The translations under genes and the position numbers were made by a program. This document shows, piece by piece, positions 25,523 through 48,761 of a stretch of 64,000 nucleotides of DNA. How positions within the stretch are numbered: position 1 is the stretch's first letter; each line of letters starts with the position of its first letter. The notes beneath the pieces are model-generated. The model had not been told where the DNA came from. It made no database searches and saw only the letters and a list, made by a program, of their open reading frames with translations. The stretch covers positions 13,512-77,511 of the forward strand of contig CAKXXW010000003.1 of assembly GCA_934378145.1 (NCBI GenBank). The letters are read 5' to 3'. This DNA comes from an uncultured Eubacteriales bacterium (GTDB taxonomy: Bacteria > Bacillota > Clostridia > Oscillospirales > CAG-272).

Positions 25523-25705
25523 GGAAAGTCTCCTTCCGGCAACTTTATTTTCCGTAAAATTATATCACTTTGCCGCCGTCGTGTCAAGGATAAACGCATT
25601 TGCCGCGCTATAAATGCGTTTATTGACAATTTGACCTTTATTTTTCCGAAAATATATGCTATAATAATAGTAATTGCGATAATGGCAGGGAAGGAGGCGG
25701 TCAAT

Positions 25706-28180
25706 ATGAAAAGAAGCGCGGCGTTTTGGGCTGTGATCCTTGTCTGCGCGCTGATATTGCCGAACCTTTCGGTGCTTACGACCCTTGCCGCGGATGAAGA
25801 CAGCGGACTTATCGGCAAGGGCTTTGCCGTCTCCGCCGCATCCGGCAGCCTGCCGGGGAGCATCTCGTCCTGCGTTTACGATATGAAGACCGGCAGGGTG
25901 AGGATAAAAGGCTCGCTCTCGACCTCTGCGGTGCGCGATCACGCCGACTGCACGATAGCGATCTTTGCGCTCGACACCGGCGAGGAGGTCGGAGATATCG
26001 AAAAGGGCAAGCTCATCCCCGTACTGTCGGGGATCTCCATGACGACCCTTATCTCGGTCGACATCACGCCGAAGTCGTCCGAACTTTTCCTTGCGAGGTG
26101 CGCAAGGTATGTTCTGACTATCGAGACGAAGGGCGGGACCTATATAAGAGTCTCGGATCCCTCCGTTCCGTCGGCGAAGACCGGAAGGCTCGATATCGGC
26201 TTCAAGGGGATAGAGAGCGTAAGGCTCGCCTCCGATCTTCGTGCCGAGGCGGGGACCGTCATAGTCGAGGTCAATACCGACCGCGTCATCAGCACAGGCA
26301 GCGGCGGGTACCTTTATACCGTCTTCGGAAAGACTGTGAGGATAAGCAAGGAATACCTTGCCGAGATAGACACACGGGTGAAGATACTGACCGGTGCGGG
26401 CGCCGATGTGCTTATAAGGCTCGTCCGACGGGGAAAGGCCAAACCCTATGCCGTGAATGCCGTCACCGATACCGACGGGAGCTTTGAGGCGTATGTCTGC
26501 GCCTCCTTCATCGCGTCAAGGTATTCGGGCGGAGAATACGGTAAAATAAGCGGCTTTGTTGCCGGTAAGCGGGTCAACGATACCGCCGCGGTGAACGATG
26601 CCGGCGGGCTCGGAGATCCCGAGTATGTGAAGGCTTACTATGAATATCTCCGTGCGGTCGCGGCGGCGATCGACGACACCGGAAGCGGGATATCGCTGAT
26701 CCTTCCCGTTTCGTCCGACTGGACGGTGAGCGAAAACGGCATATGTGCGGAGGATTTTCTGACCGCCGTCGCCGAGCAGGCGAGCCTTTACGGCAGTCCG
26801 GACTTTTGCGTTATGATAGAGAGCGAACACAACCCCTGCGGGATGAACAATGATATTACCGAGCGGATCGACGGAGTGAGCGATACCGACTCTGCGGATG
26901 ATCCTTCTGCAGACTCTGCCACGGATGCTTTTGAACCTTCCGATCCCGCGGAGACCGCCGGGGAAGACTCCGGATCCTCCGAAAATGCCGAAGCTTCCGC
27001 GACCGAAGAAGCCGCCGAAGCTCTCGAAGCCGACGGAACCGGCGAAGTCATCGCGGAGCCTTCGCCAAAGCCCGCCGACAAGAACAGCGGATATATCTCT
27101 TCGGAGAACCTGTCGGTCGCGACGGCGTTCCTTATCTCGCTCGCAAGGAAGTACGGGCATGTGTCAGAAGCGCTGATATACCTTTGGGAACCCGACCGTG
27201 ATACGACCGGGAATGCACTCTCGGCGTCTTATGTCTACAATTATTACAGGCTGTATGCCCAGAAGGAGAATGTTTCCTCGTTCATCGTATCCTTTGCGGA
27301 GAAGGAGAACGCGGGCGATACCTACGCCGCTAATGAGCTTATCCACAGGATACGATATATCGATGTGAAGGGCGCCGACGAATATGTCCGCGCCGACGAG
27401 GTGCTGAAATACTTCGGACTGTTTGACTGGAGAGAGGTCATATCCGATGAGGACAGGCAGAGGCTTGCCTCAAATGTGATCGGCGGCGGGGATTTTCTCC
27501 GCACGGCACCGTCGGGGATAAAGGGGACATATATCTACTTCGATTTCAGGTCGACCGTGGGACTCAACGGCTGGTACGCCGGTACCGGATGCAGCTCGGT
27601 CGCTCTCGACCGCGACGAATACGGAAGGGCGCTCGTAGCCGGCTTCAACGGTGAGGGCGAGGCGCTCGGCGAATACTGCTTTGCGGCTTACGGCTACAAA
27701 TACGAGGAGAGCTTCCGCTATACCGACTATATAGCCATAGAGTTCTCGGTCGGTGACCGCGGCAGCGATGAAAAGGAGTACGAGATACTTCTCAAGCTCG
27801 GCGGAGACGGATTTACGAACGAATACAGGGGCGGCGGCTTTGTCGCCGGAAAGAAATATACTGTCTACATTGATGTGTCGTCTATGACCTCCGACAATGT
27901 TGTGCAGTACCTTCGCATCGGTGCAAAGGGTATCGAAGGCACGGAACACGATTATTCGCTGAATATCTATTCCGTGAAGGCTCTCAGCACAAAATACAGT
28001 AATGCCGAACTCGGCGACAAGATAGCGGAGGAACGCGAGAGGATAATGAACGACGACACCGACAGCGGTACAGATCCGCGCGCCGTGGTCCTCACGATCG
28101 CAGTTATCGCGCTCACCGCCGCGGTTATAGTCCTCACCACAGTGCAGGGACGCAGAAGAAAAGAAAACGAAAAAGATTAA
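25706..28180 (+). CDS. Large secreted protein with a C-terminal membrane anchor; function unknown
   Basis: Signal peptide MKRSAAFWAVILVCALILPNLSVLTTLAADE after AAGGAGG. An acidic low-complexity linker (DSADDPSADSATDAFEPSDPAETAGEDSGSSENAEASATEEAAEALEADGTGE). C-terminal TM AVVLTIAVIALTAAVIVLTTV followed by QGRRRKENEKD. Confidence 0.6.
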   Translation: MKRSAAFWAVILVCALILPNLSVLTTLAADEDSGLIGKGFAVSAASGSLPGSISSCVYDMKTGRVRIKGSLSTSAVRDHADCTIAIFALDTGEEVGDIEKGKLIPVLSGISMTTLISVDITPKSSELFLARCARYVLTIETKGGTYIRVSDPSVPSAKTGRLDIGFKGIESVRLASDLRAEAGTVIVEVNTDRVISTGSGGYLYTVFGKTVRISKEYLAEIDTRVKILTGAGADVLIRLVRRGKAKPYAVNAVTDTDGSFEAYVCASFIASRYSGGEYGKISGFVAGKRVNDTAAVNDAGGLGDPEYVKAYYEYLRAVAAAIDDTGSGISLILPVSSDWTVSENGICAEDFLTAVAEQASLYGSPDFCVMIESEHNPCGMNNDITERIDGVSDTDSADDPSADSATDAFEPSDPAETAGEDSGSSENAEASATEEAAEALEADGTGEVIAEPSPKPADKNSGYISSENLSVATAFLISLARKYGHVSEALIYLWEPDRDTTGNALSASYVYNYYRLYAQKENVSSFIVSFAEKENAGDTYAANELIHRIRYIDVKGADEYVRADEVLKYFGLFDWREVISDEDRQRLASNVIGGGDFLRTAPSGIKGTYIYFDFRSTVGLNGWYAGTGCSSVALDRDEYGRALVAGFNGEGEALGEYCFAAYGYKYEESFRYTDYIAIEFSVGDRGSDEKEYEILLKLGGDGFTNEYRGGGFVAGKKYTVYIDVSSMTSDNVVQYLRIGAKGIEGTEHDYSLNIYSVKALSTKYSNAELGDKIAEERERIMNDDTDSGTDPRAVVLTIAVIALTAAVIVLTTVQGRRRKENEKD

Positions 28181-33780: not shown

Positions 33781-34203
33781 GTAGGGGAGGATATTATCCT
33801 CCCGCCCGGCAGTGTCGGGAGCCGACCCTCGCGGATTATATGCCGAATGACGAAATCTTCACCCGGAGATGATGCTTTACTAAGGGTAAGAAAAACCTCA
33901 CTTCTATCGAATGATGACCACCTAAGCCGAGGCTCCCTCCGGGAGGGAGCTGGATTTCCGACCCGTAGGGGAGGAAAGACTGAAGGAGCCCGCGGTATAA
34001 AAATTTTATACAGGCAACCGGATTGTTTGCGATCGTAAATCGTTAGTGCCGCGGGCTCTTTCAGTCGCCTTCGGCGCCAGCTTCCTCCCGGAGGAAGCCT
34101 CTTGTCTGCATAAATCGTTCTTTCATTTATAGGGCGATGCTTTTAATTGAAACGGTAGGGGCGACCATTGGTCGCCTGCCGGGAGGATAATATCCTCCCC
34201 TAC
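33781..34203. repeat. Non-coding ~420-bp element built from three nested inverted-repeat pairs (MITE-like or a long structured RNA)
   Basis: Outer pair 33781-33812 / 34176-34203 (GTAGGGGAGGATATTATCCTCCCGCCCGGCAG versus CTGCCGGGAGGATAATATCCTCCCCTAC). Middle pair 33929-33953 / 34077-34101. Inner pair 33978-33995 / 34049-34066. ORFs in the region show no coding character. Confidence 0.6.
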
Positions 34204-34258
34204 GGGTATGCGGAAAGCGATCACAGGCGCACGCACAAAACGAATATGAAAATGCCGC

Positions 34259-34286
34259 CCCCCGCGAGGGAAATTCCTCGCGGGGG
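34259..34286 (-). terminator. Hairpin terminator downstream of the pilin-like adhesin gene
   Basis: CCCCCGCGAGG-loop-CCTCGCGGGGG. On the minus strand it is followed by the U-rich GCGGCAUUUUCAUAUUCGUUUU. Confidence 0.5.
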
Positions 34287-34343
34287 CGAACACATATTAT
34301 TATTTATTTTGATTCGTTGGCAATGTTACTATTCCGACGGCAA

Positions 34344-35699
34344 TTACCAAGATTTCGTCATTTTATCCGGAGTAAAGTCCTTATCGTCTATCGCTTTCCA
34401 GTTTGTAACGGTTTTGTTCTCTTCGTCGGTAACAGTTGTCTTAGCTTTGTTGCTCTGATTTATACCGTAGAATCCGAATTTTGCGGTTGCCTGTCTGTAC
34501 GAATTTTCATCCTTGACAACACACTGCATACCGTTGACTGTTTTAAGAGTGGCATCGGGGCTGATATGTGCCGAAGAATTATCGTTGACTGTGATGTTTG
34601 AAAGCGTAATGCTGCTATTTTCAAGACTGGTATGATTGTCACTGCTACCTGTTACAACACCGAAAAGCAGTCCGCACTCGCCGCCCTTGGAATAAACATT
34701 TGAGTTTTCGACGGTTACATTGTTTATTTTGACATTATAATTATCTTTGGTTACATATCCGAACAGAAGACCTGTCTTATTGTCGCCGTACACAGTGGAA
34801 TTTTTGATCTTGACATTTGATATTTCGACATCGCCACTCACATGAGAAGCAAATATTGCACCTTGGGATTTTTCATATGTACCGACTACCGCACTGTCGA
34901 TTGTTAGGTCTTTTACGGTCAGATCTTTGACCCATCCGAACATCGCGGCACCGTAGTTGGTGCTTTCAGATCCGTCGGAACTAGTTCCGAATCCCGAATG
35001 ATTATCCGATATATATAATCCGGTAATCGTATGATTATTTCCGTTGATTGTAACTTTAGGCGCATTGCCACTGTTGTTCTTATCAACAAAACATACATCC
35101 GCGCCGTTGAGGTTCATATCAGCGGTGATATTAATCGTGATGTTTTTGTCATTGAGTTCATTGGTAGTATACTGCATAAAATATTCCGCTATCTTTACAA
35201 GGTCGGCAGCGCTTTTTGCTTCGTATGTGTCATTGTCCTGCGGTGCATTGGCAGGTGTTTGGAATTTTGCCTTTGATGTATCAATCTTTCCGCTGAGGGA
35301 GAACCACTGGTTGCCGTTCGTGGTGTCATCGGATTTGGATGTGACATCCTTGTATTCATCGGGGTAAAGGACTTTGTTGTCCTTGTCGGTGTAAAGAACG
35401 CGGTTCAGCTTGCTGTCCCAGAAGAAATATCTGTCGGAGACGAGCGGACGGTAATCTTTTGCAGTCATGCCGCCGGCTTTCAGCGCGGCATATACATCGG
35501 TGATGTCCTTGTTGCCCGTGACCTCGTTCACTGCGAGGAAGGTGTTCATTTCGCGGCACGCCTGAATGTCCGCGCTGGTGTTAGCTTTCTGAATGAGGCT
35601 CGCGAAGGTGGGGATAAGCACTGCCGCGAGTATGGCAATTATCGCAATCACGATGACCAGCTCGACGATAGTGAAACCCTTTTTGGTGCTTCTTTTCAT
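34344..35699 (-). CDS. Prepilin-type N-terminal cleavage/methylation domain protein fused to a beta-helix (GLUG-like) adhesin domain
   Basis: N-terminus MKRSTKKGFTIVELVIVIAIIAILAAVLIP is the class III signal (G/FTxxE plus hydrophobic helix). The C-terminal ~300 aa show periodic beta-helix repeats (INGNNHTITGL, GAAMFGWV, GLLFGYV, GLLFGVV, N[IV]x[IV]xN). AAGGAG RBS. The gene is visibly AT-rich compared with its neighbours. Confidence 0.75.
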   Translation of the reverse strand: MKRSTKKGFTIVELVIVIAIIAILAAVLIPTFASLIQKANTSADIQACREMNTFLAVNEVTGNKDITDVYAALKAGGMTAKDYRPLVSDRYFFWDSKLNRVLYTDKDNKVLYPDEYKDVTSKSDDTTNGNQWFSLSGKIDTSKAKFQTPANAPQDNDTYEAKSAADLVKIAEYFMQYTTNELNDKNITINITADMNLNGADVCFVDKNNSGNAPKVTINGNNHTITGLYISDNHSGFGTSSDGSESTNYGAAMFGWVKDLTVKDLTIDSAVVGTYEKSQGAIFASHVSGDVEISNVKIKNSTVYGDNKTGLLFGYVTKDNYNVKINNVTVENSNVYSKGGECGLLFGVVTGSSDNHTSLENSSITLSNITVNDNSSAHISPDATLKTVNGMQCVVKDENSYRQATAKFGFYGINQSNKAKTTVTDEENKTVTNWKAIDDKDFTPDKMTKSW

Positions 35700-35745
35700 G
35701 GTTTTTTCTCCTTTTTTGAATTGTTTTTCGCGGTAAGACGCGAAT

Positions 35746-35928
35746 TTTTTTTCGCAGAGTTACCAACTCTACGAAGTCAAAAGGGCTTTTAAGACCATAA
35801 AAATGAAGCGTTCGTGGCGCTTGTTCACAAATGGATGGATAAACAAAATATTTTTTTGAAATTCTATTGACATTGAAGGCAATATGTGGTATAATCGTGT
35901 CGTAGAGTTGGTAACTTTACGAAAAAAA
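35746..35928. promoter_or_regulatory. Candidate invertible promoter segment (inverted repeats flanking a consensus promoter)
   Basis: AGTTACCAACTCTACGA at 35758-35774 has a perfect reverse complement at 35900-35916. The repeat extends to 29 bp with 2 mismatches (35746-35774 / 35900-35928). The enclosed 125 bp carry the promoter listed next. Confidence 0.5.
35867..35895 (+). promoter_or_regulatory. Perfect consensus sigma-A promoter, currently directed away from the pilin-like gene
   Basis: TTGACA (35867-35872), 17-nt spacer, TATAAT (35890-35895). Confidence 0.65.
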
Positions 35929-35954
35929 CCTCGCAGGAATCTGCGAGGTTTTTT
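35922..35954. terminator. Bidirectional intrinsic terminator (radC terminator; also stops plus-strand transcripts from the 35867 promoter)
   Basis: AAAAAAA-CCTCGCAG-GAAT-CTGCGAGG-TTTTTT. Confidence 0.8.
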
Positions 35955-35978
35955 CATTATATTTATTTTTTTGCCGGT

Positions 35979-36692
35979 TTATCTTCTTTTGAGCTTCGGG
36001 ACATTGTCAAACCTGTCGCTGTGGCTGCGCTTTTCGTGGATTATCGCATAATATTGATTTCCCGCCACCACATAATGCTCTATCAGCGGCACGCTCATCT
36101 GATTACATATGAATTCGAGCTGATGCGTTATCTCGATGTCGCTGCCAGACGGCGACGCGATCCCGCTCGGGTGATTGTGCGCGAGGACTATGCAGGCGGC
36201 GTGCGACAGTATAGCCTCCTCGATCAGCGGCTTGACAGAAAAAGCCACAAGGTTCGTCATACCGTCGGCGAGTTTGCGGCAGGACAGCATCTCCATCTTG
36301 CCGGTGAAGGTAAGGATATAGACCTCCTCGACCTTTTTGCCGAGAAAGAGGCGTTTCAGGTAATCCCCGAGCTTTTCGACCGTTTCAAAGCGCTCGTTCT
36401 GCTTCGCCTCGGAGAGCAGGTAGCGGCGCGAAAGCTCCGCCGAAAATTTTATCAGCGTTGCCGCGTGTTCGCCGATGCCCTCGACCTCGAGAAGCTCCTC
36501 ATATGATGCTTCAAGCACCTCACGGAGCGAGCCGAAGCGATTTATAAGCCTGTGTGCGATAACATTCGTGTCCTGTCTCGGGATACCGAAGAAAAGCAGA
36601 AGTTCGATGACCTGATGCTCGTCAAAACAGTCAAGACCGTTTTTCAGAAATCGGTTTTTCATTCTCTGCCGATGTTCGGCGTGTTCGTTCAT
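35979..36692 (-). CDS. radC: RadC-family JAB-domain protein
   Basis: N-terminal HhH region (LELLLFFGIPRQDTNVIAHRLI..FGSL) and the JAMM motif LAHNHPSG. Confidence 0.88.
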   Translation of the reverse strand: MNEHAEHRQRMKNRFLKNGLDCFDEHQVIELLLFFGIPRQDTNVIAHRLINRFGSLREVLEASYEELLEVEGIGEHAATLIKFSAELSRRYLLSEAKQNERFETVEKLGDYLKRLFLGKKVEEVYILTFTGKMEMLSCRKLADGMTNLVAFSVKPLIEEAILSHAACIVLAHNHPSGIASPSGSDIEITHQLEFICNQMSVPLIEHYVVAGNQYYAIIHEKRSHSDRFDNVPKLKRR

Positions 36693-38344: not shown

Positions 38345-38381
38345 AAACAGTGAATGAGAACTTATGGCTCCGGAGGCAGAA

Positions 38382-39419
38382 ATGTTCGAGAAACTGAAAT
38401 CCTTTTTCGGAAATGATATAGGTATTGACCTTGGTACCGCGTCGGTGCTTGTCTATGTGAAGGGCAAGGGCATCGTACTCAGGGAACCCTCGGTCGTGGC
38501 GATAGATACCTCGACGGATAAGATACTTAAGGTCGGGAGCGAGGCGCAGCAGATGCTCGGAAGGACTCCCGGCAATATCGTTGCGATCCGCCCTTTGCGT
38601 GAGGGCGTCATAAGCCAATACGAGGTCACGCTGAAAATGCTTCAATATTTTATCCGCCGCGCCTGCGGGAATATGTTCTTCAAGCCGAAGGTCATGATCT
38701 GCGTTCCCACGGGGATCACCGAGGTCGAGGAAAGGGCGGTCGTCGCCGCCTCCAATCAGGCGGGCGCGAGGCAGACTCACCTCATAGAGGAGCCGGTCGC
38801 CGCGGCGATAGGGGCCGGACTTGACATTTCGGATCCCACCGGCAGAATGGTCGTCGACATCGGCGGCGGTACGACCGACATCGCGGTAATCTCGCTCGGC
38901 GGGATAGTCGTTTCCGATTCGATAAAGGTCGCCGGAGACAAGATGGATGAGGCTATCATGAGGTATGTGCGCAGGACCTACAATATGCTGATAGGCGAAC
39001 GCACCGCCGAACGGATAAAGATATCGATCGGCGCGATCTACGAGCATAAGCGCCCGAAGACTATCAAGGTAAAGGGCAGGGATCTGCGTGACGGACTTCC
39101 GAAGGAGGTACTTATCAGTTCAACTGAAATGCTCGAAGCATTATATGAACCGATAGAGAGCATCCTTGATTCCGTGTGTTCGGTCATCGAGCGTACACCG
39201 CCCGAGCTTGTAGGCGATATACTTCAGCACGGCATCACTCTGACAGGCGGAGGAAGCCTCATCTACGGCTTCGATAAGCTCATTACGAAGGTGACGGGCA
39301 TAAGCGCAAGAGTCGCTGACGATCCCATCTCCTGCGTCGCCATAGGCACCGGCGAATCGCTCGAAAACCTTGCCGCTATCCCCGAGGGCAGCGTCAATTT
39401 CTCGAAATATAAAAACTGA
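38382..39419 (+). CDS. mreB: Rod shape-determining actin homologue MreB
   Basis: DIGIDLGTASVLVYVKGKGIVLREPSVVA, DIGGGTTDIAV, and LTGGGSL. I chose the start at the ATG at 38382, after GGAGG. Confidence 0.92.
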   Translation: MFEKLKSFFGNDIGIDLGTASVLVYVKGKGIVLREPSVVAIDTSTDKILKVGSEAQQMLGRTPGNIVAIRPLREGVISQYEVTLKMLQYFIRRACGNMFFKPKVMICVPTGITEVEERAVVAASNQAGARQTHLIEEPVAAAIGAGLDISDPTGRMVVDIGGGTTDIAVISLGGIVVSDSIKVAGDKMDEAIMRYVRRTYNMLIGERTAERIKISIGAIYEHKRPKTIKVKGRDLRDGLPKEVLISSTEMLEALYEPIESILDSVCSVIERTPPELVGDILQHGITLTGGGSLIYGFDKLITKVTGISARVADDPISCVAIGTGESLENLAAIPEGSVNFSKYKN

Positions 39420-39450
39420 TATACTGCTACATATATAAGGAGGTTGTTTT

Positions 39451-40881
39451 ATGGAATACATCATACACGGCAGGAAGCCCGAAAATCTTTTCCGCTTCTT
39501 CGAGGAGATCTCCGCAATCCCGCGCGGGTCGGGAAACGAGAAGGGCATCGCCGACTATCTTGAAAATTTTGCGAAAGTCAGGGGGCTTGAGTGCTACCGC
39601 GATCGGGTGAATAATATATTTATTAAAATGAAGGGAAGCGCGGGGCGCGAAAATGAGCCTGCCGTGCTGCTTCAGGCTCACACCGATATGGTCTGCGAAA
39701 AGAACGAGGGAGTCAAACACGATTTTCTGAAAGACGGACTCGAGCTTTACCTTGACGGAAGGTTTCTCCGCGCGCGCGGGACGACTCTCGGAGCCGATGA
39801 CGGTATCGGAGTCGTGACGGCGCTCGCCTTCCTTGACGGTGCGTCGGAATCTCACCCGCCGCTCGAGTGCCTCTTTACGACCTCGGAGGAGACGGGAATG
39901 GACGGCGTGAACGGCTTCGATTTCTCGCATGTTTCGGCGCGGAAGATGCTCAACCTCGACTCGGAGGACATCGGCACGGCAATCGTCGGCTGCGCCGGCG
40001 GAGTCAGAGTGCGCCTCACCCTTAAGGGAACGCCCGAGGCGGCGGTGGGGAAGACCCTGCGCCTCTGCGTAAAGGGGCTTGCCGGCGGACATTCGGGCAG
40101 CAACATTGCCGACGGGCGCACGAACGCTAATAAGCTGATGGGAAGGATCCTGCTCGCACTCGGCGATGATCTGAGGCTCGTAAGCCTCACCGGAGGAGGC
40201 AAATCGAACGCTATTCCGCGTGAGTGCGAGGCGCTTATCGTCACACCCGACGCAGAGAAGACCGCAAAACTCGCAAAGAGCGTCGCGACGGGCATTGCCG
40301 GAGAGCTCGGCGAGTGGGATAACGGCTTTGAATTCATCTGCGAGGAGGTTTCGGATCAATCGAAAGCATTTAGCGCTCAATTGACCGCAAAAGCTCTTGC
40401 AATGATCGGAATCCCCGCAAACGGCGTTCTTGAGATGAGCAAAAGGATCGACGGTTTCGTCGAATACTCGAGGAACCTCGGGGTCATCAGAACGAAGGAA
40501 GACGGCATCTCCTTCACCTTCTTTGCCCGCTCGGCGATCGAGGGTCAGCTCGACGCGACCTGCTGTGAGCTTGCGTCGCTTGCGAAGCTCTGCGGCGCGG
40601 AGATGAAGATCAACGAGCGCTACCGCGGATGGGACTATTCGCCCGAGTCCGAGGTGCGCGATGCCTACGCGGCGGCATATAAGAGGGTCACGGGCAAGGA
40701 TATAAACATCGCCGCGATCCACGCGGGACTTGAGTGTGGAGTGATAAAGGAGCGGATCCCCGATATGGACATCATAGCGATCGGCCCCGACGCGATAGAC
40801 ATTCATTCGCCCGACGAAAAGCTCGACCTTGACACGGCGGAGACATTTTTCGCGGTTATCGCCGAAATGCTGGCGAAATAA
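39451..40881 (+). CDS. pepD: Aminoacyl-histidine dipeptidase (PepD, M20C family)
   Basis: FEEISAIPRGSGNEKGIADYL, LQAHTDMVCEK, and GADDGIGV. Confidence 0.85.
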   Translation: MEYIIHGRKPENLFRFFEEISAIPRGSGNEKGIADYLENFAKVRGLECYRDRVNNIFIKMKGSAGRENEPAVLLQAHTDMVCEKNEGVKHDFLKDGLELYLDGRFLRARGTTLGADDGIGVVTALAFLDGASESHPPLECLFTTSEETGMDGVNGFDFSHVSARKMLNLDSEDIGTAIVGCAGGVRVRLTLKGTPEAAVGKTLRLCVKGLAGGHSGSNIADGRTNANKLMGRILLALGDDLRLVSLTGGGKSNAIPRECEALIVTPDAEKTAKLAKSVATGIAGELGEWDNGFEFICEEVSDQSKAFSAQLTAKALAMIGIPANGVLEMSKRIDGFVEYSRNLGVIRTKEDGISFTFFARSAIEGQLDATCCELASLAKLCGAEMKINERYRGWDYSPESEVRDAYAAAYKRVTGKDINIAAIHAGLECGVIKERIPDMDIIAIGPDAIDIHSPDEKLDLDTAETFFAVIAEMLAK

Positions 40882-41015: not shown

Positions 41016-41044
41016 TTGACATTTTTTACGACGGATGATATAAT
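41016..41044 (+). promoter_or_regulatory. Perfect consensus sigma-A promoter of the first beta-helix surface protein gene
   Basis: TTGACA (41016-41021), 17-nt spacer, TATAAT (41039-41044), bracketed by the 8-bp inverted repeat GTTGACAT / ATGTCAAC. Confidence 0.65.
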
Positions 41045-41098: not shown

Positions 41099-44000
41099 AT
41101 GAAACGCTCACTTTCACTTGTTCTTGTGTTAGCTTTGGTCATCGGTATGTTCTCTGTATTCGCGATTTCCGCGGGTGCCGAAGATACGACCGCAGCGCCC
41201 GAAGCTCCCACAGAGCCCACGACTCCTACGGAACCTACATTCCCCGAGGGTGCCGTGGCTATTGCCACCGCAGAAGAATTTGCGGCGATGGAAGCCGGTA
41301 AGTACTACTATCTTACCGCCGACATCACTGTCGCAGCTACTTACGAGACCGATTTTACCGGAACATTCGACGGTAACGGTCATACCGTCACGACCTCTGT
41401 GGCTCTTTTCAAGACACTGAAGGGTGCAACTGTAAAGAACCTTACTCTCAATGGTGAAGTCACTGCGGCGGCTGACGACAATCGTGCGGCAGTTCTGGCA
41501 AAAAATGCAAGTAAGGTCACGATTGAGAATGTTGTCAACAATGCCAACCTCAATGCAAGCTGCAAGGGCGGCTATGTCGGCGGCTTCATTGCACAGGGCT
41601 CGACCGGCGGCGGAACGGCGAAGACTCATGAAAAGAGCTATTTCACCAACTGCGTCAATAACGGTAATATTACTTATGTTTACGAAGACGCCGCGAATCA
41701 GGATACTCCCCGTGTTGCCGGTATAATCGGTAATGTCGCGAAGTATCAACACGGCGTATATACCAACTGCGTAAACAACGGTAAAGTCAGTGTCACCGGA
41801 GCCGGACTCAAAGGCGCTCCCTACGTAGCAGGTATTGCCGGAAGCTCATTCGGCGGAGATTTCGTAAACTGCGTCAACAACGGCGACCTTTACTGCACCG
41901 CGGGTGCCCATATGGGCGGTATCCTCGGCAGAGGAACTCCCTCCTCGCAGGACACCAATCAGTCGTCGACTGCTACCGGATGCGTCAACAACGGTAACCT
42001 TACGATAGCAACCGATCCCGCCATAACAAGCGGCTCGCTCGGCGGCATCTTCGGTCATTGCGGTGTTACGATGAAGAAGACCGCAAACGCCATTTACACT
42101 GTCGAGAAATGCGTCAACACAGGTACTCTTACCTGCAGCGGTTCGCAGGCCGGCGGTATGATCGGTTATGTCTGGGGATCCAACAACGAAAAGACATGGT
42201 CGTATCCCGTGATAAAGGATTGCATCAATGTCGGTAAGCTCGTCGGTACGAAGAATGCCACCCCCGAGACCGAACCCGACACCACATTCTTCCGCGCTAC
42301 CTACCTTTCGCACTTCGTTGGTTATGTCAACGCCAGCAATACCATTATCGATAATTGCTTCGGTCTTGGCACGCTTGAGAACACCAATGACGATTATAAT
42401 GTTATCTTCGGACTTTCCTCCGATGTTGCTCTTAACTTTAAGATAGGTAATATTTACCTTGCTCCCAACGACGGAACAAAGAACTATTCCTACGGTCATG
42501 ATGCTTGGGTTGATACCAAAGACGAAGCAGGCAATCCTGTTAAGGATGATGCGGGCAAGACAGTTCAGCATCTCGAAGACAGAAGCGCAAACCGTATCAC
42601 CATTGCGGCGTATCAGGCAAATACTGACATGGCAGGCAATGTTGTCAACGACAAGGATGTCTTCGCGACAGACGGAACCACTGCTTCTCTCATCGAGGCT
42701 ACCGTTACTGCTATCAACGCAAATGACAACGGATTCTTCTTCGTTGACGGCGGCAAGGTCAACAGCCTTGAGGCTGCTGTTGCGGCGGTCAAGGACGGCG
42801 GAACGATCGTTCTTCTCAACGATGTCACCCTTGCGGCTGCTGCTACGGTCGAGAAGAGCAATATGACCTTCACGATCGACGGCGCGGGTCACACCCTTAC
42901 CGGATCGGTCACTCTCAAGACCCCCGGATGCACTGTCAATGTCAACAATCTTAAGGTAGTCGGCAATGTTGTCACCGATGTCAACACTGCCGAAACTATG
43001 GCTACACTCAATGCAAACGGTCTCGAGATCGACGCTACCGCAAAAGGTACTGCTCTCACCAACAACGGTTTCTGGAATATAAACCTTGAAGGTTGCAGAT
43101 TTGTTTCCAAGAGCGCTGCATTCGACAACAAGCTTTCGGGCGGTTGCGATAATGCAAAAATCGTTATCAACAAATCTTATTTTGAAGGTAAAGAATCTTA
43201 CGCTATATACCTCAGACAGGGTTGCGAAGCCGTAATCACAGATTCTACCCTTATCTCGTCCAAGAATTCGGGTATTCAGATGATTACCGCTACCGAGGGC
43301 AAGGGCACGACCCTCAGACTCAATAACTGCAATATCACATCGACAACCGCTTATTGCGTGGCTGTCAACCCCTTCAACAAGGTCTATATCAACGGCGGTG
43401 TTTATGCTACCACTAATAAGGATGCCTGTATAAATGTCAACGGAGAAAACGCTTACTGCGAAATCAGAAGCGGTTCGTTCACATCCAACCAGAACTGCGC
43501 GGCGAGAGCCTACGGTGCAGGTGCAACTCTTGATATCTATGACGGTGAGTTCTACTACACCGGAACCGCCGGCGGAAGCGCTATCCGCGGCGGAACCAAG
43601 GATAAGGGCGGCACGATCAATATCCACGGCGGCGTGTTCAGCTCGGCGGGAACCGAGTATGCCGTTATCAACGGTGTACATGCCGACAGCGTTATAACCA
43701 TCAACGCAGGTAAGTTCATCAACGCCGGTACGGCTGTCATTCCGGTTTACACGAAGACCGGCTCTGCCGGAACCGATTCGATCGACTTCCCGGAAGGCCA
43801 GAAGGAATTCGTGCTTGGGAATCCCACTCCTTCCGACACCACCACTGAGAACAAACCCGGCGACACCACCACCGAAAACAAGCCCGGTGACACCACCACC
43901 GAGAATAAGCCCGGTGACACTACCACCGAGAACAAGCCCGGCGACAACACCACTACCGAAAGCAAGCCCACCGATTCCAACAAGCCCGGTGACACCACCA

Positions 44001-44116
44001 CCGGTGCTACCGAAGAGGGCGGATGCAACGGTTGCGGCGGTTTCGCAGCAGCGGCTCAGGTAGTTGCTCTTCTCGTTGGCGTCGTGGGCGTTGCCCTCGT
44101 CGTAAAGCGCAAATAA
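41099..44116 (+). CDS. Large secreted beta-helix (GLUG-like/PbH1-like repeat) surface protein with a Thr/Pro-rich stalk and a Cys-containing C-terminal anchor
   Basis: Signal peptide MKRSLSLVLVLALVIGMFSVFAISAGA. FTGTFDGNGHTVTTS module. Periodic GG[FIM]I[AG] motifs (GGFIAQG, AGIIGNV, AGIAGSS, GGILGRG, GGIFGHC, GGMIGYV). 4x TTTENKPGD repeats. Tail EEGGCNGCGGFAAAAQVVALLVGVVGVALVVKRK. Confidence 0.8.
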   Translation: MKRSLSLVLVLALVIGMFSVFAISAGAEDTTAAPEAPTEPTTPTEPTFPEGAVAIATAEEFAAMEAGKYYYLTADITVAATYETDFTGTFDGNGHTVTTSVALFKTLKGATVKNLTLNGEVTAAADDNRAAVLAKNASKVTIENVVNNANLNASCKGGYVGGFIAQGSTGGGTAKTHEKSYFTNCVNNGNITYVYEDAANQDTPRVAGIIGNVAKYQHGVYTNCVNNGKVSVTGAGLKGAPYVAGIAGSSFGGDFVNCVNNGDLYCTAGAHMGGILGRGTPSSQDTNQSSTATGCVNNGNLTIATDPAITSGSLGGIFGHCGVTMKKTANAIYTVEKCVNTGTLTCSGSQAGGMIGYVWGSNNEKTWSYPVIKDCINVGKLVGTKNATPETEPDTTFFRATYLSHFVGYVNASNTIIDNCFGLGTLENTNDDYNVIFGLSSDVALNFKIGNIYLAPNDGTKNYSYGHDAWVDTKDEAGNPVKDDAGKTVQHLEDRSANRITIAAYQANTDMAGNVVNDKDVFATDGTTASLIEATVTAINANDNGFFFVDGGKVNSLEAAVAAVKDGGTIVLLNDVTLAAAATVEKSNMTFTIDGAGHTLTGSVTLKTPGCTVNVNNLKVVGNVVTDVNTAETMATLNANGLEIDATAKGTALTNNGFWNINLEGCRFVSKSAAFDNKLSGGCDNAKIVINKSYFEGKESYAIYLRQGCEAVITDSTLISSKNSGIQMITATEGKGTTLRLNNCNITSTTAYCVAVNPFNKVYINGGVYATTNKDACINVNGENAYCEIRSGSFTSNQNCAARAYGAGATLDIYDGEFYYTGTAGGSAIRGGTKDKGGTINIHGGVFSSAGTEYAVINGVHADSVITINAGKFINAGTAVIPVYTKTGSAGTDSIDFPEGQKEFVLGNPTPSDTTTENKPGDTTTENKPGDTTTENKPGDTTTENKPGDNTTTESKPTDSNKPGDTTTGATEEGGCNGCGGFAAAAQVVALLVGVVGVALVVKRK
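43835..43942 (+). repeat. Four in-frame 27-bp tandem repeats encoding DTTTENKPG, followed by degenerate copies
   Basis: Units at 43835-43861, 43862-43888, 43889-43915 and 43916-43942. The copies differ only at synonymous positions. Confidence 0.85.
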
Positions 44117-44149
44117 TCCCAACGGTTAAAAAGTAAAAAACTTTTTTAA

Positions 44150-44191
44150 GCGCATCCTCCCCTTCGGAGGGGAGGATGCGCGGTATTTTTT
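44150..44191 (+). terminator. Intrinsic terminator between the two surface protein genes
   Basis: 13-bp stem GCGCATCCTCCCC / GGGGAGGATGCGC followed by GGTATTTTTT. Confidence 0.8.
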
Positions 44192-44212
44192 GACAGAACA
44201 GGAATTATTATA

Positions 44213-46009
44213 ATGAAAAAGATTATTTCAATTGTCGTTGCTGTCCTCATGGCAGCAACACTTTTTGCGGCTCTCCCCTTCGCCGTTTCGGCTGACGAGA
44301 CGCCCGCAACTCCTGCCGCCCCCGAAGGCACCGCTGTAAAGACCACAGAGGAATTTATGGCTATGGTCGACGGCGGTACATACTATCTTGACGCGGACAT
44401 CGTTATTTCCGAGACAAAGGCGTCCTTCACCGGAACCCTTGACGGAAACGGTCATGCGATAGTTACCTCTGCACCTATATTCCAGAACCTCGGAGATGCG
44501 ACAATTAAAAATCTCACCATTACCGGTGAAGTCGCAAAAGACACCACCAAAGATTGGAGCGCCGCCCTTGCCGTATATGTCGTTTCTTCTGCGACCGTCA
44601 CGATCGAGAATGTTGTCAACGCCGCAAATGTCAGCGGCAAACGCGTCGGCGGCTTCATTACCGACACTGTTGCCGGAGCTACCGTTGACGGCGTCTTCAA
44701 GCCCACGACCGTAAAGTTTATCAACTGCGCAAACACCGGCGCAATGAACGGCACCGAGCTTGTCGGAGGCTTCCTCGCCTACCCGCACGGCGATGTTCTC
44801 GAGATGACCAACTGCAAGAACACCGGAAAGATCACATCTACCGGTTATGCTGCCGGTCTGGTCGCGCGCTTCGGTCCCAATGCGACATATTCGGCTGACA
44901 TGAAAGCTACCTTCACAAACTGCGTCAACACCGCTGAAGTAAACAGCAGCGGTGAGTATGCCGGCGGTATCCTTGCTTATTCGCGCGGAAGCTACCTTAA
45001 GTTCGACTCCTGCGTCAATGAGGGCAAGGTCACCAATACCTCGAAGGGTGTCGGCGGTATCGCCGGATACCTCGGATACAAAAACGGGCAGTCCGTCGTT
45101 GCGGATTTCGTAAAATGCGTCAACAAGGGCGAGATCGTTCTCAACAAGGTTGATGCCGGTGGATCTGCAGCCGCCGGAGCTATGGTCGGTTATGTTTACG
45201 GAATCGGAAAAGATGAAACCGGCAGAGCCGGTGTGGATTCCTGCATAAACCTCGGCACGATAACTACCGGTTGGTACGGCTCGCAGTTCATCGGTTACTG
45301 CAACTCGAAATACTGCTTTATTAAGAACAGCATCGCTGCGGGAAGCGTAAAGGCTCTTGAAGGTACCTCGAAATTTTATTCCTGCGTTATCGGATGCTCG
45401 AGCGCCGATCTTACCGCATGCGAAATAAAGAATGTTTTCTACCTTGAAAACGACGGCACCGAATATTATTCTTATGCGACCGCCGATGCCAACAGCGGCA
45501 ACATAGTGAAGCTCACAAATTACCTCAGCGCTGATGCGACCAAGGACAATATCACGGTCGTCACCGCAGAGGATCTTGCAAGCGGTAAGGTCGCGTACAG
45601 GCTCAACAAGGCTGCCGGCGAGACTGTCGTTTATCAGACCCTCGGCACCGATACCGTTCCTGTTCTCGACAATACTCACGGTGTAGTTTACCTCAACAAC
45701 GGTGCCTACTCGAACACCGCTCCCGACCCGAATGACACAAGCACGGAGCCTGTCGAAGATACCACCGCTGACGGCGGTGACAACACCACCACCGAAAGCA
45801 AGCCCAACGAATCCGACAAGCCCGGTGACAATACCACTACCGAAAATCAGCCCACCGACTCCAAGCCTACTGATTCTAAGCCCACCGACACCACCGGTGC
45901 TGCCGAAGAGGGCGGATGCAACGGTTGCGGCGGATTCGCAGCAGCGGCTCAGGCAGTTGCTCTCCTTGTCGGCGTTGCGGGCGTTGCCCTCGTCGTCAAG
46001 CGCAAATAA
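44213..46009 (+). CDS. Paralogous secreted beta-helix surface protein with the same Cys-containing C-terminal anchor
   Basis: Signal peptide MKKIISIVVAVLMAATLFAALPFAVSA. FTGTLDGNGHAIVTS. GG[FI]xx motifs (GGFITDT, GGFLAYP, AGLVARF, GGILAYS, GGIAGYL). Stalk NTTTESKPNESDKPGDNTTTENQPTDSKPTDSKPTD. Tail EEGGCNGCGGFAAAAQAVALLVGVAGVALVVKRK. Confidence 0.8.
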   Translation: MKKIISIVVAVLMAATLFAALPFAVSADETPATPAAPEGTAVKTTEEFMAMVDGGTYYLDADIVISETKASFTGTLDGNGHAIVTSAPIFQNLGDATIKNLTITGEVAKDTTKDWSAALAVYVVSSATVTIENVVNAANVSGKRVGGFITDTVAGATVDGVFKPTTVKFINCANTGAMNGTELVGGFLAYPHGDVLEMTNCKNTGKITSTGYAAGLVARFGPNATYSADMKATFTNCVNTAEVNSSGEYAGGILAYSRGSYLKFDSCVNEGKVTNTSKGVGGIAGYLGYKNGQSVVADFVKCVNKGEIVLNKVDAGGSAAAGAMVGYVYGIGKDETGRAGVDSCINLGTITTGWYGSQFIGYCNSKYCFIKNSIAAGSVKALEGTSKFYSCVIGCSSADLTACEIKNVFYLENDGTEYYSYATADANSGNIVKLTNYLSADATKDNITVVTAEDLASGKVAYRLNKAAGETVVYQTLGTDTVPVLDNTHGVVYLNNGAYSNTAPDPNDTSTEPVEDTTADGGDNTTTESKPNESDKPGDNTTTENQPTDSKPTDSKPTDTTGAAEEGGCNGCGGFAAAAQAVALLVGVAGVALVVKRK

Positions 46010-46027
46010 TCTCTTCTGAAAATTTAT

Positions 46028-46060
46028 TCAGCCTCCCGAAAACGGGAGGCTGAATTTTTT
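46028..46060 (+). terminator. Intrinsic terminator after the second surface protein gene
   Basis: TTCAGCCTCCCG-AAAA-CGGGAGGCTGAA followed by TTTTTT. Confidence 0.85.
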
Positions 46061-46317
46061 GCTTTGTCCTGTGAGGAAAACTTGCTTTTCCACATAGGAC
46101 CTTCCGGCCGAAAATTTATGTCCGGGTGCAAAGTGGGGGACTCTTTCGGGGAGGACTGTTTTTCAACTAAGCAAAATACAAACAGAACTGGCAAAATATA
46201 ACACGATTTTTGGCCGGTTTGAACTCTGCACTCGAAAAAGAGCGTTTTTCTCGTCCGGAGGTCGTAAAAAGGCGTAATTTTCAGCCCTGTTTTTGCCCTT
46301 AAAATTGAAAAAACCTC

Positions 46318-46346
46318 TTGAATTTCCGAAGGTTATGAGATATAAT
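46318..46346 (+). promoter_or_regulatory. dcw cluster promoter (Pmra)
   Basis: TTGAAT (46318-46323), 17-nt spacer, TATAAT (46341-46346). Confidence 0.6.
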
Positions 46347-46359
46347 ATAAACACCCGCG

Positions 46360-46394
46360 GTGGTGGAAAGTGGGGCAAAGTGGTGCCGAGTGGC
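46360..46394 (+). promoter_or_regulatory. MraZ operator: four GTGGN boxes with 10-bp periodicity
   Basis: GTGGTggaaaGTGGGgcaaaGTGGTgccgaGTGGC, starting 14 nt after the -10 and ending 24 nt before the mraZ ATG. Confidence 0.7.
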
Positions 46395-46418
46395 AAATAT
46401 CAGAAAGGAGGTCCGGCT

Positions 46419-46853
46419 ATGACACTGGTTTTCAGGCATAATCTTGACGCGAAAAACCGTCTTTTTATACCCGCGAAATTCCGTGAAGAGCTGGGGACCG
46501 AATTTGTGATCGCCGCGAACCTTCACCCCGGGGTGCATTGCCTCAACATTTACACGGTCGAGGAATGGGAAAAATACATCCGGCCGATAATGGAAAAGCC
46601 GAGGGTCGAGGCGGAGAAGATACTCCGTAAGCTCAACCGGCTGGCAACACGGGTCACACCCGATTCGCAGGGGCGCGTTCTCCTTCCCGAATCGCTGACC
46701 GCTTACATCGGCGCCGGCGGAGAAGACCGCGAGATGGTCATCAACGGATGCGGCTTCTATGCCGAGATCTGGACTGCGAAGGCTTACGACGAGATGCTCG
46801 CCGAAGAGGATTCGGACGAGATCGCCGCGACCCTCCTGTCCTACGGAATGTGA
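46419..46853 (+). CDS. mraZ: Transcriptional regulator MraZ
   Basis: Duplicated SpoVT/AbrB-like halves (LDAKNRLFIPAKFREEL and PDSQGRVLLPESL). I chose the start at the ATG at 46419, after AAAGGAGG. Confidence 0.85.
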   Translation: MTLVFRHNLDAKNRLFIPAKFREELGTEFVIAANLHPGVHCLNIYTVEEWEKYIRPIMEKPRVEAEKILRKLNRLATRVTPDSQGRVLLPESLTAYIGAGGEDREMVINGCGFYAEIWTAKAYDEMLAEEDSDEIAATLLSYGM

Positions 46854-46859
46854 TCTTTG

Positions 46860-47807
46860 ATGGCAGAAGACAATATTGAATTTTCACATAGCCCGGTCAT
46901 GCCGGACGAGTGTATAGAGGGGCTAAACATTCGTCCGGGAGGGATCATCGTGGACGGTACGGCTGGGGGCGGCGGTCATTCTTTTCTGATCGCCGAACGC
47001 CTTACCGAAGGGGAACTGATAGCGATAGACCGCGATTCAGCCGCGATCCGGGCGGCGGGCAAAAGGCTTGAGCCGTTTGCTGACAGAGTCAGATTTGCCC
47101 GCAACAATTTTACGGAACTGCGTCGGGTCTGCAATGATCTCGGCGTAAACAGGATAGACGGCCTTCTTCTCGACCTCGGTGTGTCGTCTTACCAGCTCGA
47201 CACTCCCGACCGCGGATTCTCGTATATGGCGGATGCTCCGCTCGATATGAGGATGTCGCAGGACGACAGCCTTACGGCTTACGATGTCGTCAACGGGTAT
47301 TCCGAGGGGGAACTGAGAAGGATACTGTTCGAGTACGGAGAGGAGCGCTTCGCACCGAAGATCGCCGCGGCGATAGTGAGGGAGCGGAAAAAAGCTCCGA
47401 TAAGAACGACTCTTGAGCTTGTCGGCATAATCAAGTCGGCAATGCCCGCGTCGGCGAAGGTCGGCGGGCATCATCCGGCAAAGAGAAGTTTTCAGGCGAT
47501 AAGGATCGAGGTAAACGGCGAGCTTGCCGCGATAGAACCCGCGATCCGCGATGCCGCCGATATGCTGAATCCGGGCGGAAGGATCGTTATCATCACCTTC
47601 CACTCGCTTGAGGACAGGATAGTGAAGCAGACCTTTGCCGACCTGTCAACGGGCTGTATCTGCCCGAGAGAGCTTCCGGTCTGCGTCTGCGGACGGAAGC
47701 CTGTTATGAAACTGATAACGAAGAAGCCTTTGCTTCCGAGCGAGGCTGAACTTGAAAAAAACCCGCGCTCACGGAGCGCAAAGGTAAGGATAGCCGAAAA
47801 AATCTGA
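46860..47807 (+). CDS. rsmH: 16S rRNA (cytosine1402-N4)-methyltransferase RsmH
   Basis: HSPVM, VDGTAGGGGHS, LLDLGVSSYQLD, and ITFHSLEDRIVK. Confidence 0.92.
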   Translation: MAEDNIEFSHSPVMPDECIEGLNIRPGGIIVDGTAGGGGHSFLIAERLTEGELIAIDRDSAAIRAAGKRLEPFADRVRFARNNFTELRRVCNDLGVNRIDGLLLDLGVSSYQLDTPDRGFSYMADAPLDMRMSQDDSLTAYDVVNGYSEGELRRILFEYGEERFAPKIAAAIVRERKKAPIRTTLELVGIIKSAMPASAKVGGHHPAKRSFQAIRIEVNGELAAIEPAIRDAADMLNPGGRIVIITFHSLEDRIVKQTFADLSTGCICPRELPVCVCGRKPVMKLITKKPLLPSEAELEKNPRSRSAKVRIAEKI

Positions 47808-47828
47808 TGTGAAAAGGGGGGCGACGCC

Positions 47829-48761
47829 ATGTCCGGACAGAATAAGAGCGGATACGATGCAACTGTAGATCAGCTTTGCGATCGTTTCAGGGGCAGAGGA
47901 GCCGCCGCCAACGCAAGAGATGAGGCTGGGCGTCAGAATGCCGCCGGCCGTGAGGCTCCCAATGCCTACTTCCTTTCCAGAATGGATCGCGGAGAGATCC
48001 CGCCGAAGTTCAGAAGCGGAGAATACAACGGCAAAAAGTATATGACCACCGGCGACTTCCTTGAAAAATACAGATCTCACAGGACGGAGTCGGGCGCATA
48101 CATACCTCATAAGCCTTCTGTAAACACAAGGGAGTTCAGAAAGCCTCAGGTACAGCAGGAGCCTTCGCAGCAGCGCAACGGCGCGGCGGGAAGACCCGTG
48201 CAGGAGATGCAGAGACGACCCGCGCAGAGCGCTGCTGAGTACGCGACAAGAACGCCGCAGCAGAGAAGCGTCGGACGCTTCGATCCCCGCGCCGATACGA
48301 TAGTGATGCCGGCGCAGAAGACTGCCGGTAAGGTCAAGGGGCGCATCAGAAGACTCTTTGAGAAATGGTTCCCCGCGGATACCGAAAAGAAGCGCGAGGA
48401 AGGAAAGAAAAAGAAGAATATTCCCGTTGCCATGATAGGCTTTATCGTCTCCGTGGCTGCGGCAATGTCGATGATAGTCGGTACGACCGTTATGAGCGGA
48501 GAGGCTCAGAGTCAGGTCGGAACGCTTAAGTCGGAAATAAAGAGCCTTGAGGCGGAGCGCCTGCGGCTCGAGGAGGAGCTTGTCAGGAAGGATGACCTTG
48601 CCATGATAAGCGACTATGCCGAGGAAAAGCTCGGCATGATAAGAAAGGATTATGTGTCATCGGTCTACCTTCCCTCTGCCGAAGGCGACAGCGTGCAGGC
48701 GACCGAGAAGAAGGACGGCAAAGGTCTTGCCTCGCTTCTCAGCGCCATCTACGGCGGCTGA
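47829..48761 (+). CDS. ftsL: FtsL-like cell division protein with an unusually long cytoplasmic N-terminal extension
   Basis: Single TM IPVAMIGFIVSVAAAMSMIVGTTVM at about residue 198, followed by a coiled coil (LKSEIKSLEAERLRLEEELVRKDDL). Conserved position between rsmH and the PBP gene. Confidence 0.6.
   Translation: MSGQNKSGYDATVDQLCDRFRGRGAAANARDEAGRQNAAGREAPNAYFLSRMDRGEIPPKFRSGEYNGKKYMTTGDFLEKYRSHRTESGAYIPHKPSVNTREFRKPQVQQEPSQQRNGAAGRPVQEMQRRPAQSAAEYATRTPQQRSVGRFDPRADTIVMPAQKTAGKVKGRIRRLFEKWFPADTEKKREEGKKKKNIPVAMIGFIVSVAAAMSMIVGTTVMSGEAQSQVGTLKSEIKSLEAERLRLEEELVRKDDLAMISDYAEEKLGMIRKDYVSSVYLPSAEGDSVQATEKKDGKGLASLLSAIYGG

Follow-up and report, generated by a model that had tools for sequence, protein, structure and literature searches.

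A conserved Gly-Cys tail on surface proteins of Clostridia: a candidate cysteine-type sorting signal and its link to a coupled Lgt-paralog/CPBP gene pair

Introduction

Bacterial lipoproteins are matured at their N-terminus by Lgt and then by LspA, at a lipobox of the form [LVI][ASTVI][GAS]C. We know of no enzyme that modifies the Cys of the corresponding cysteine-type C-terminal sorting signals, and to our knowledge no signal of this type has been catalogued for Clostridia. The Cys-bearing signals that have been described (MYXO-CTERM, JDVT-CTERM and Synerg-CTERM, as well as CGP-CTERM) are each predicted to be substrates of a CPBP/Rce1-type protease (Haft, 2023 preprint, 10.1101/2023.06.07.544157). 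For MYXO-CTERM, cleavage by the protease MrtX and its dependence on the Cys have been shown experimentally, while a prior, Lgt-like lipidation is an unproven proposal (mBio 2025, PMC11980579). Here we analyse two neighbouring surface-protein genes in a 64,000-nucleotide stretch of contig CAKXXW010000003.1 from an uncultured Eubacteriales bacterium (henceforth the window). A preliminary description of this DNA had suggested that the near-identical C-terminal tails of the two proteins form an uncharacterised, tripartite sorting or anchoring signal with a CxxC signature, and had likened it to signals that are each read by a dedicated enzyme. We find that the tail is a real, conserved and portable C-terminal module with an invariant juxtamembrane Cys, that it is uncatalogued and lineage-wide in Clostridia, and that its occurrence in Clostridia is closely tied to that of a coupled pair of genes encoding an Lgt paralog and a CPBP protein.

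Results

A six-frame scan for tails in the genome to which the window belongs (1.95 Mb in 70 contigs, 94% complete; G000) found 13 open reading frames (ORFs) whose C-termini run from a Gly-Cys motif through a hydrophobic helix to K/R residues. Apart from the gene pair, the other 11 are spread over nine further contigs and the part of contig C3 that lies beyond the window. Their passengers are unrelated by Pfam content (CHAP+SH3, fn3/collagen, GLUG, MucBP, two GDSL esterases and Big_3), and N-terminal signal peptides are visible in those tail ORFs that have a complete start. The tail profile (A3) also matched six of the nine other genomes of the genus, with up to 10 tails each, as well as 41 of 201 genomes in a sample of the family, representing many other genera. 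In a sample of 399 genomes of the class, tails were found in G353 (15 tails), G522 (14), G603 (9) and G581 (1) besides this genome, adding three further families and bringing the total to four families of Clostridia; the distribution is patchy but multi-copy. A pattern search derived from an alignment of five tails gave 362 matches with one confirmed locus, in an uncultured Clostridia metagenome-assembled genome, and a protein-database search with the tail profile gave at least 41 matches. The preliminary description had proposed to scan the genome and its relatives for such C-termini, and had named confinement of the motif to these two genes as the outcome that would count against a signal; the motif turned out to be widespread and carried by unrelated passengers, in support of a tripartite sorting or anchoring signal.

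When 27 tails drawn from many genera were aligned, a single Cys remained as the sole invariant column, within G-C-[GSA]-[GS]. Among 63 distinct tails, Gly precedes this Cys in 89%, Gly follows it in 75% and Gly or Ser occupies the second position after it in 95%, while the distance from the Cys to the basic cluster is 20–26 residues (mode 23). The invariant residue is the second Cys of the proposed CxxC signature, the first being present in 11 of the 63 tails and hence optional, so that the conserved unit is G-C-[GSA]-[GS] rather than CxxC. As read from these sequences, the signal consists of G-C-[GSA]-[GS], a predicted hydrophobic helix of about 20 residues and K/R. The G-C-G-[GS] core is kept on the 13 paralogous tails of this genome and likewise in congeneric species, between which orthologous enzymes share only 36–90% identity.

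Not every C-terminal helix in these genomes carries the Cys. Within the window, an 889-aa ORF (25511-28177, + strand) has a C-terminal hydrophobic helix that lacks Cys, with RRRK after it, indicating that plain C-terminal helix anchors coexist with Cys tails. Some secreted proteins of relatives in the same family (loci L033, L039 and L041) have Cys-less tails with T-G-D or P-A-T-G before the helix; these tails of related genera may represent a different, sortase-type signal.

The uncharacterised status of the tail was borne out by profile comparisons. No CTERM model of NCBIfam release 20 or Pfam reached its cut-off for either full protein or for any of 12 tails, and TIGR03901 (MYXO-CTERM) gave no match to them even at E <= 10. 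Sub-threshold matches were obtained to Rumino_NPXTG, LPXTG, PEP-CTERM, Loki-CTERM, PGF-CTERM and Synerg-CTERM, and no LPXTG-like motif was found in the tails. The statement that the window lacks a sortase, exosortase or rhombosortase-like gene extends to the whole 94%-complete assembly, in which there was no match to sortase (PF04203), rhomboid (PF01694) or exosortase (PF09721) models. A search of the literature turned up no account of a tail like this in Clostridia.

Comparison of tail-positive and tail-negative genomes, along the lines of the phylogenetic profiling that the preliminary description had put forward to find a co-occurring enzyme, pointed to a candidate in other genomes. In all 12 tail-positive genomes examined outside the genus of the window, a second Lgt gene is overlapped or directly followed by a CPBP gene, and in five of the 12 a tail-bearing gene lies immediately upstream of the pair; by comparison, no CPBP gene was found near a second Lgt at any of 14 loci of tail-negative genomes. 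A profile of the coupled-type CPBPs (A4) gave bimodal scores in the class sample (375 bits in G353, 350 in G522, 344 in G603 and 208 in both G426 and G581, with the next best genome at 107); the other tail-positive genomes scored 208–375 bits in the class sample and 257 bits or more in the family sample. In the family sample, tails and an A4-type CPBP occurred together in 34 genomes, tails alone in 7, the CPBP alone in 5 and neither in 155; the corresponding counts in the class sample were 4, 1, 1 and 393. The Fisher values of 3e-26 (family sample) and 2e-8 (class sample) overstate independence because the genomes compared are related. The co-occurrence pattern covers 16 genera in four families, and the coupled Lgts form one clade in the Lgt tree (support 92). 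Lgt copy number was also tried as a predictor of tails and found to be weak, two or more copies being present in about 90% of tail-positive genomes and in about a third of tail-negative ones.

Several features of the pair are worth recording in their own right. Members of the tail-associated Lgt clade (alignment and profile A5) have the Cys-rich form GRIGCFFAGCCYG in place of the canonical Lgt signature. One genome (G013:C90:3054-4691) has the Lgt paralog and the coupled-type CPBP in one open frame of 575 aa, an apparent gene fusion. In G426, a CPBP of the coupled type (208 bits) and an Lgt of the clade type (224 bits) are encoded (C3:123987-124760 and C6:66063-66881), whereas profile A3 detected no tail there even with E <= 0.1 allowed; a tail of diverged type may be present instead.

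The genus of the window is the exception to this association: a dedicated enzyme pair is present in other tail-bearing genomes and was not found in this genus. Of the seven tail-only genomes in the family sample, four belong to this genus and have strong, multi-copy tails (best E about 1e-16), and the other three have marginal single matches. The 1.95-Mb genome encodes three Lgt paralogs, one canonical and two divergent (C10:37128-37907, C2:92627-93343 and C2:79033-79761), an Lnt homologue, and four CPBP proteins, all with intact EExxxR, FxxxH and HxxxN motifs. No Lgt adjoins a CPBP in this genome, the seven genes lying on different contigs or far apart, and a tblastn comparison of their products with the sequences flanking the first tail loci returned no matches.

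Individual genes of this set differ in how they relate to the coupled pair. The Lgt at C2:92627-93343 (Lgt_C2a) is sister to the coupled-Lgt clade (Shimodaira-Hasegawa-like approximate likelihood ratio test, SH-aLRT, 97), scores 332 bits on A5 and is conserved in the genus. CPBP_C32, on contig C32, is sister to the coupled CPBP clade on a long branch, and no other protein of this genome is closer to the coupled CPBPs. CPBP_C13 is catalytically intact and has clear orthologs within the genus alone; on contig C13 (L043:5887-8513, - strand) its start is overlapped by an apolipoprotein N-acyltransferase homologue (TIGR00546, 280 bits against a cut-off of 132.9), and the two genes are also neighbours in two further species of the genus. 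CPBP_C46 was set aside as a tail enzyme, given its orthologue-level matches in tail-negative genomes. Apart from these comparisons, we noted that the strain-specific CPBP_C32 (L003:450-2593, - strand) is preceded by a 168-aa isochorismatase-like ORF, and that its 3' end overlaps a 302-aa ORF resembling, by eye, an S-adenosylmethionine-dependent carboxyl/O-methyltransferase; a CPBP next to a putative methyltransferase recalls the Rce1/Icmt protease-methyltransferase pair.

The features of the two genes of the window are listed in Table 1. Both ORFs are as first described, and so is the position of the first tail; the second tail had been placed one codon late, at 45905. In the gene 1 product a signal peptide is followed by a GLUG / M26-N-like beta-helix, then by another beta-helix-like region, and finally by a repeat stalk and the Cys tail; the gene 2 product is made up of a signal peptide, a beta-solenoid, a disordered stalk and the Cys tail. 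By eye, both signal peptides span residues 1–27 and are of a typical Sec type, that of gene 1 ending in SAGA. Each gene has its own strong intrinsic terminator. The earlier account of near-identical tails on otherwise diverged proteins is accurate: the tails agree in 32 of 35 residues and in 99 of 108 nucleotides, most synonymous sites included, versus 33% identity over the N-terminal ~500 residues (the beta-helix parts), where no long nucleotide alignment exists. Identity that extends to synonymous sites is best explained by a recent conversion or duplication of the 3' ends on top of the family-wide conservation. The Thr/Pro/Lys/Asp-rich stalk noted before the tail is likewise present in both proteins, and in both it is built of tandem repeats.

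Table 1. Features of the gene pair, with positions in the window
Feature	Position	Strand	Evidence and details
Promoter-like site 5' of gene 1	41016-41044	+	TTGACA, 17 nt, TATAAT; 12/12 matches, TG-extended
Gene 1, 1005-aa secreted surface protein (P0001)	41099-44116	+	ORF list, domain searches
Gene 1 stalk repeat	43834-43953	+	Tandem-repeat analysis; 27 nt x 4.4, DTTTENKPG units
Gene 1 tail, residues 971-1005	44009-44113	+	Motif GGCNGCGG, then hydrophobic helix 982-1002, KRK end
Gene 1 Cys976 (optional)	44024-44026	+	Tail alignment
Gene 1 Cys979 (family-invariant)	44033-44035	+	Tail alignment
Gene 1 intrinsic terminator	44150-44191	+	14-bp stem, 10 GC pairs, then T run
Gene 2, 598-aa paralogue (P0002)	44213-46009	+	ORF list, AlphaFold2 model, structure comparison
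Gene 2 stalk repeat	45849-45893	+	Tandem-repeat analysis; 15 nt x 3, KPTDS units
Gene 2 tail, residues 564-598	45902-46006	+	
Gene 2 Cys572 (invariant)	45926-45928	+	
Gene 2 intrinsic terminator	46026-46063	+	13-bp stem, then T run

An AlphaFold2 model of the 598-aa protein contains a confident beta-solenoid at residues 40–410 (predicted local distance difference test, pLDDT, above 90) and is disordered from residue 486. The best structural matches of the solenoid were 3n6z (a putative IgA1 protease of Bacteroides; E 3e-6) and 6xja/7uvl (the N-terminal region of streptococcal IgA1 proteases), at low TM-scores of 0.27–0.31. These matches agree with the sub-threshold matches to Peptidase_M26_N (19.5–20.9 bits against a cut-off of 27.7) and GLUG. 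Neither protein matched a peptidase catalytic-domain model in a scan of the domain library, and no HExxH was seen in either by eye, no motif search having been made.

On the 5' side of the gene pair (38364-40881) lie mreB and a 476-aa ORF that resembles a pepD-type dipeptidase, and on the other side (46293-48761) begins a division and cell-wall cluster with ORFs resembling mraZ, rsmH and an ftsL-like gene; all of these names, mreB included, were assigned by eye, with no family search. The G+C content falls locally to 0.44 at positions 34001-36000, versus about 0.54 in the remaining window. An Rfam scan of the window gave no match.

Discussion

On balance, we favour the reading of the tail as a cysteine-type sorting and anchoring signal of the MYXO-CTERM kind, which we hold to be somewhat better than an even bet. 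Each tail protein would be exported by Sec through its N-terminal signal peptide, as judged by eye, and the C-terminal helix would hold it in an N-out/C-in orientation with the basic cluster in the cytoplasm, as the positive-inside rule predicts. With this topology the invariant Cys would sit at the membrane's outer face, beneath the disordered stalk that bears the beta-helix. In most tail-bearing genomes, co-occurrence and gene order suggest that the Cys is probably S-lipidated by the dedicated Lgt paralog and that the helix would then be removed by the translationally coupled Rce1-type (CPBP) protease. Such a pathway would mirror the maturation of N-terminal lipoproteins, and would be an analogue of the MYXO-CTERM/myxosortase system.

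A number of observations weigh against this reading, most of them from the genus of the window itself. No A4-type CPBP was found in this genome or in five further genomes of the genus. The best A4 score here, 66.6 bits for CPBP_C32, is in the generic CPBP range, and CPBP_C32 was rejected as the cognate protease of the genus because it has no ortholog in those five genomes. None of the four CPBPs reached any Mrt* cut-off, including those of MrtJ and MrtS, and the highest score on Mrt_core (NF040914) was 18 bits against 100. The case for Lgt_C2a as a tail-specific enzyme is weakened in turn, because Lgts of this type are also present in G238, G301 and G555, three genomes in which no tails were detected. 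The relatedness of the genomes also tempers the co-occurrence statistics, and both lipidation and cleavage are, for every member of the family, predicted steps.

How, then, are the tails of this genus to be understood? The coupled pair was not found in the genus and yet G-C-G-G is kept; the tail proteins are therefore at least anchored in the membrane by the helix. Retention of this core on 13 paralogous tails and in diverged species argues against a decaying relic, and suggests that some enzyme probably continues to recognise the Cys. Possible readers, none of them established, are the uncoupled, sister-clade Lgt_C2a together with one of the CPBPs of the genus. Among the latter, CPBP_C13 may be a substitute tail protease, although its genus-specific distribution is confounded by phylogeny. 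The CPBP_C13/Lnt pair could equally serve ordinary lipoprotein N-acylation by analogy with LnsAB, since LnsB, a remote CPBP homologue, serves lipoprotein N-acylation in S. aureus. A second, independent machinery, in which Lgt_C2a reads the Cys and the Lnt-coupled, genus-specific CPBP cuts, or in which the tails stay lipidated and uncleaved, is in our view unlikely; if it were true, Clostridia would have more than one set of enzymes that act on the Gly-Cys signal.

A rival explanation is that the tail of this genus is a plain type I membrane anchor, with the helix as a tether and neither cleavage nor lipidation. The Gly-Cys would then be kept for reasons such as an interchain disulfide or interface packing, or as what is left of a sorting system since lost. 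This genome does use plain anchoring, given that other secreted ORFs end in Cys-less transmembrane helices with K/R; moreover, the coupled Lgt-CPBP pair was not found in the genus, and no candidate enzyme is tail-specific. However, a relic should have decayed, whereas the G-C-G-[GS] core persists on 13 tails with unrelated passengers and in diverged species, and elsewhere the same motif tracks a dedicated enzyme pair. We regard this explanation as possible but doubtful.

The remaining explanations account for less of the evidence. The near-identity of the two tails at the DNA level, in genes with 33% amino-acid identity elsewhere, would fit a tail that arose merely through recent tandem duplication or gene conversion and does not act as a signal. 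Conversion, however, accounts for the extra similarity of this pair and not for the existence of the motif, which 11 further ORFs of this genome and other families of Clostridia also carry, making this scenario very improbable. It is harder still to credit a variant cell-wall sorting signal, with sortase-like cleavage and transpeptidation to peptidoglycan. Its tripartite layout would be that of LPXTG, and there are weak, sub-threshold matches to Rumino_NPXTG and LPXTG_anchor, but these lie far below the cut-offs and arise from the helix, and neither an LPXTG-like motif nor a sortase was found in the 94%-complete genome.

The tail marks a large, unannotated class of surface proteins in sortase-less, uncultured Clostridia, including adhesin-like beta-helices, MucBP proteins, CHAP hydrolases and GDSL esterases, the annotation of which would be improved by a profile built from alignment A3. 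Beyond annotation, the comparison across genomes makes an Lgt paralog the candidate for the missing lipid transferase of cysteine-type signals. What is new here is the absence of the usual Lgt/CPBP pair at the level of a genus. With strong tails and without the usual enzymes, the genus of the window constitutes a natural control, which could reveal whether the Cys is modified and by what.

The tail can be compared with several known systems. With LPXTG proteins and sortase A it shares the order of motif, helix and basic cluster, the setting of Gram-positive surface proteins and a wall-spanning stalk, and differs in that this genome has neither an LPXTG motif in its tails nor a sortase. CAAX processing by prenyl transferase, Rce1 and Icmt likewise combines lipidation of a C-terminal Cys with subsequent cleavage after the Cys by an Rce1-family protease; there, three residues follow the Cys and the reaction is on the cytoplasmic side, whereas in the tail about 25 residues with a transmembrane helix follow it and the site would be extracytoplasmic. 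The other Cys-bearing CTERM signals described by Haft also have a single invariant Cys directly before the helix and predicted CPBP processing, but the tail lacks their signature residues (a DP or a GP following the Cys, or a Pro within the helix), and their models match below cut-off.

The closest resemblance is to MYXO-CTERM and to lipoprotein maturation. Like MYXO-CTERM, the tail is tripartite, its invariant Cys lying within a GC(GC) motif rich in Gly, with a helix without charged residues or Pro and a basic end; it occurs in many copies per genome on unrelated secreted proteins and, elsewhere in Clostridia, together with a CPBP/Rce1-type protease. Unlike MYXO-CTERM, it does not match TIGR03901, its end is Lys-rich rather than Arg-rich, its CPBP is coupled to an Lgt paralog, and the genus of the window is without a cognate CPBP; the type II secretion step of Myxococcus has no evident counterpart in the Clostridia host, where no search for one was made. 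From lipoprotein maturation the tail differs in its helix, which is C-terminal and of opposite topology, in its putative protease, which is a CPBP rather than LspA, and in the predicted cut, which would leave a free carboxyl group rather than an amine. Both systems nevertheless place a Cys amid small residues at the outer end of a cleavable (here, putatively cleavable) helix and have a candidate or known modifier of the Lgt family, and the tail, when read from the Cys towards the helix (C, G/S/A, G/S, hydrophobic), is a mirror image of the lipobox.

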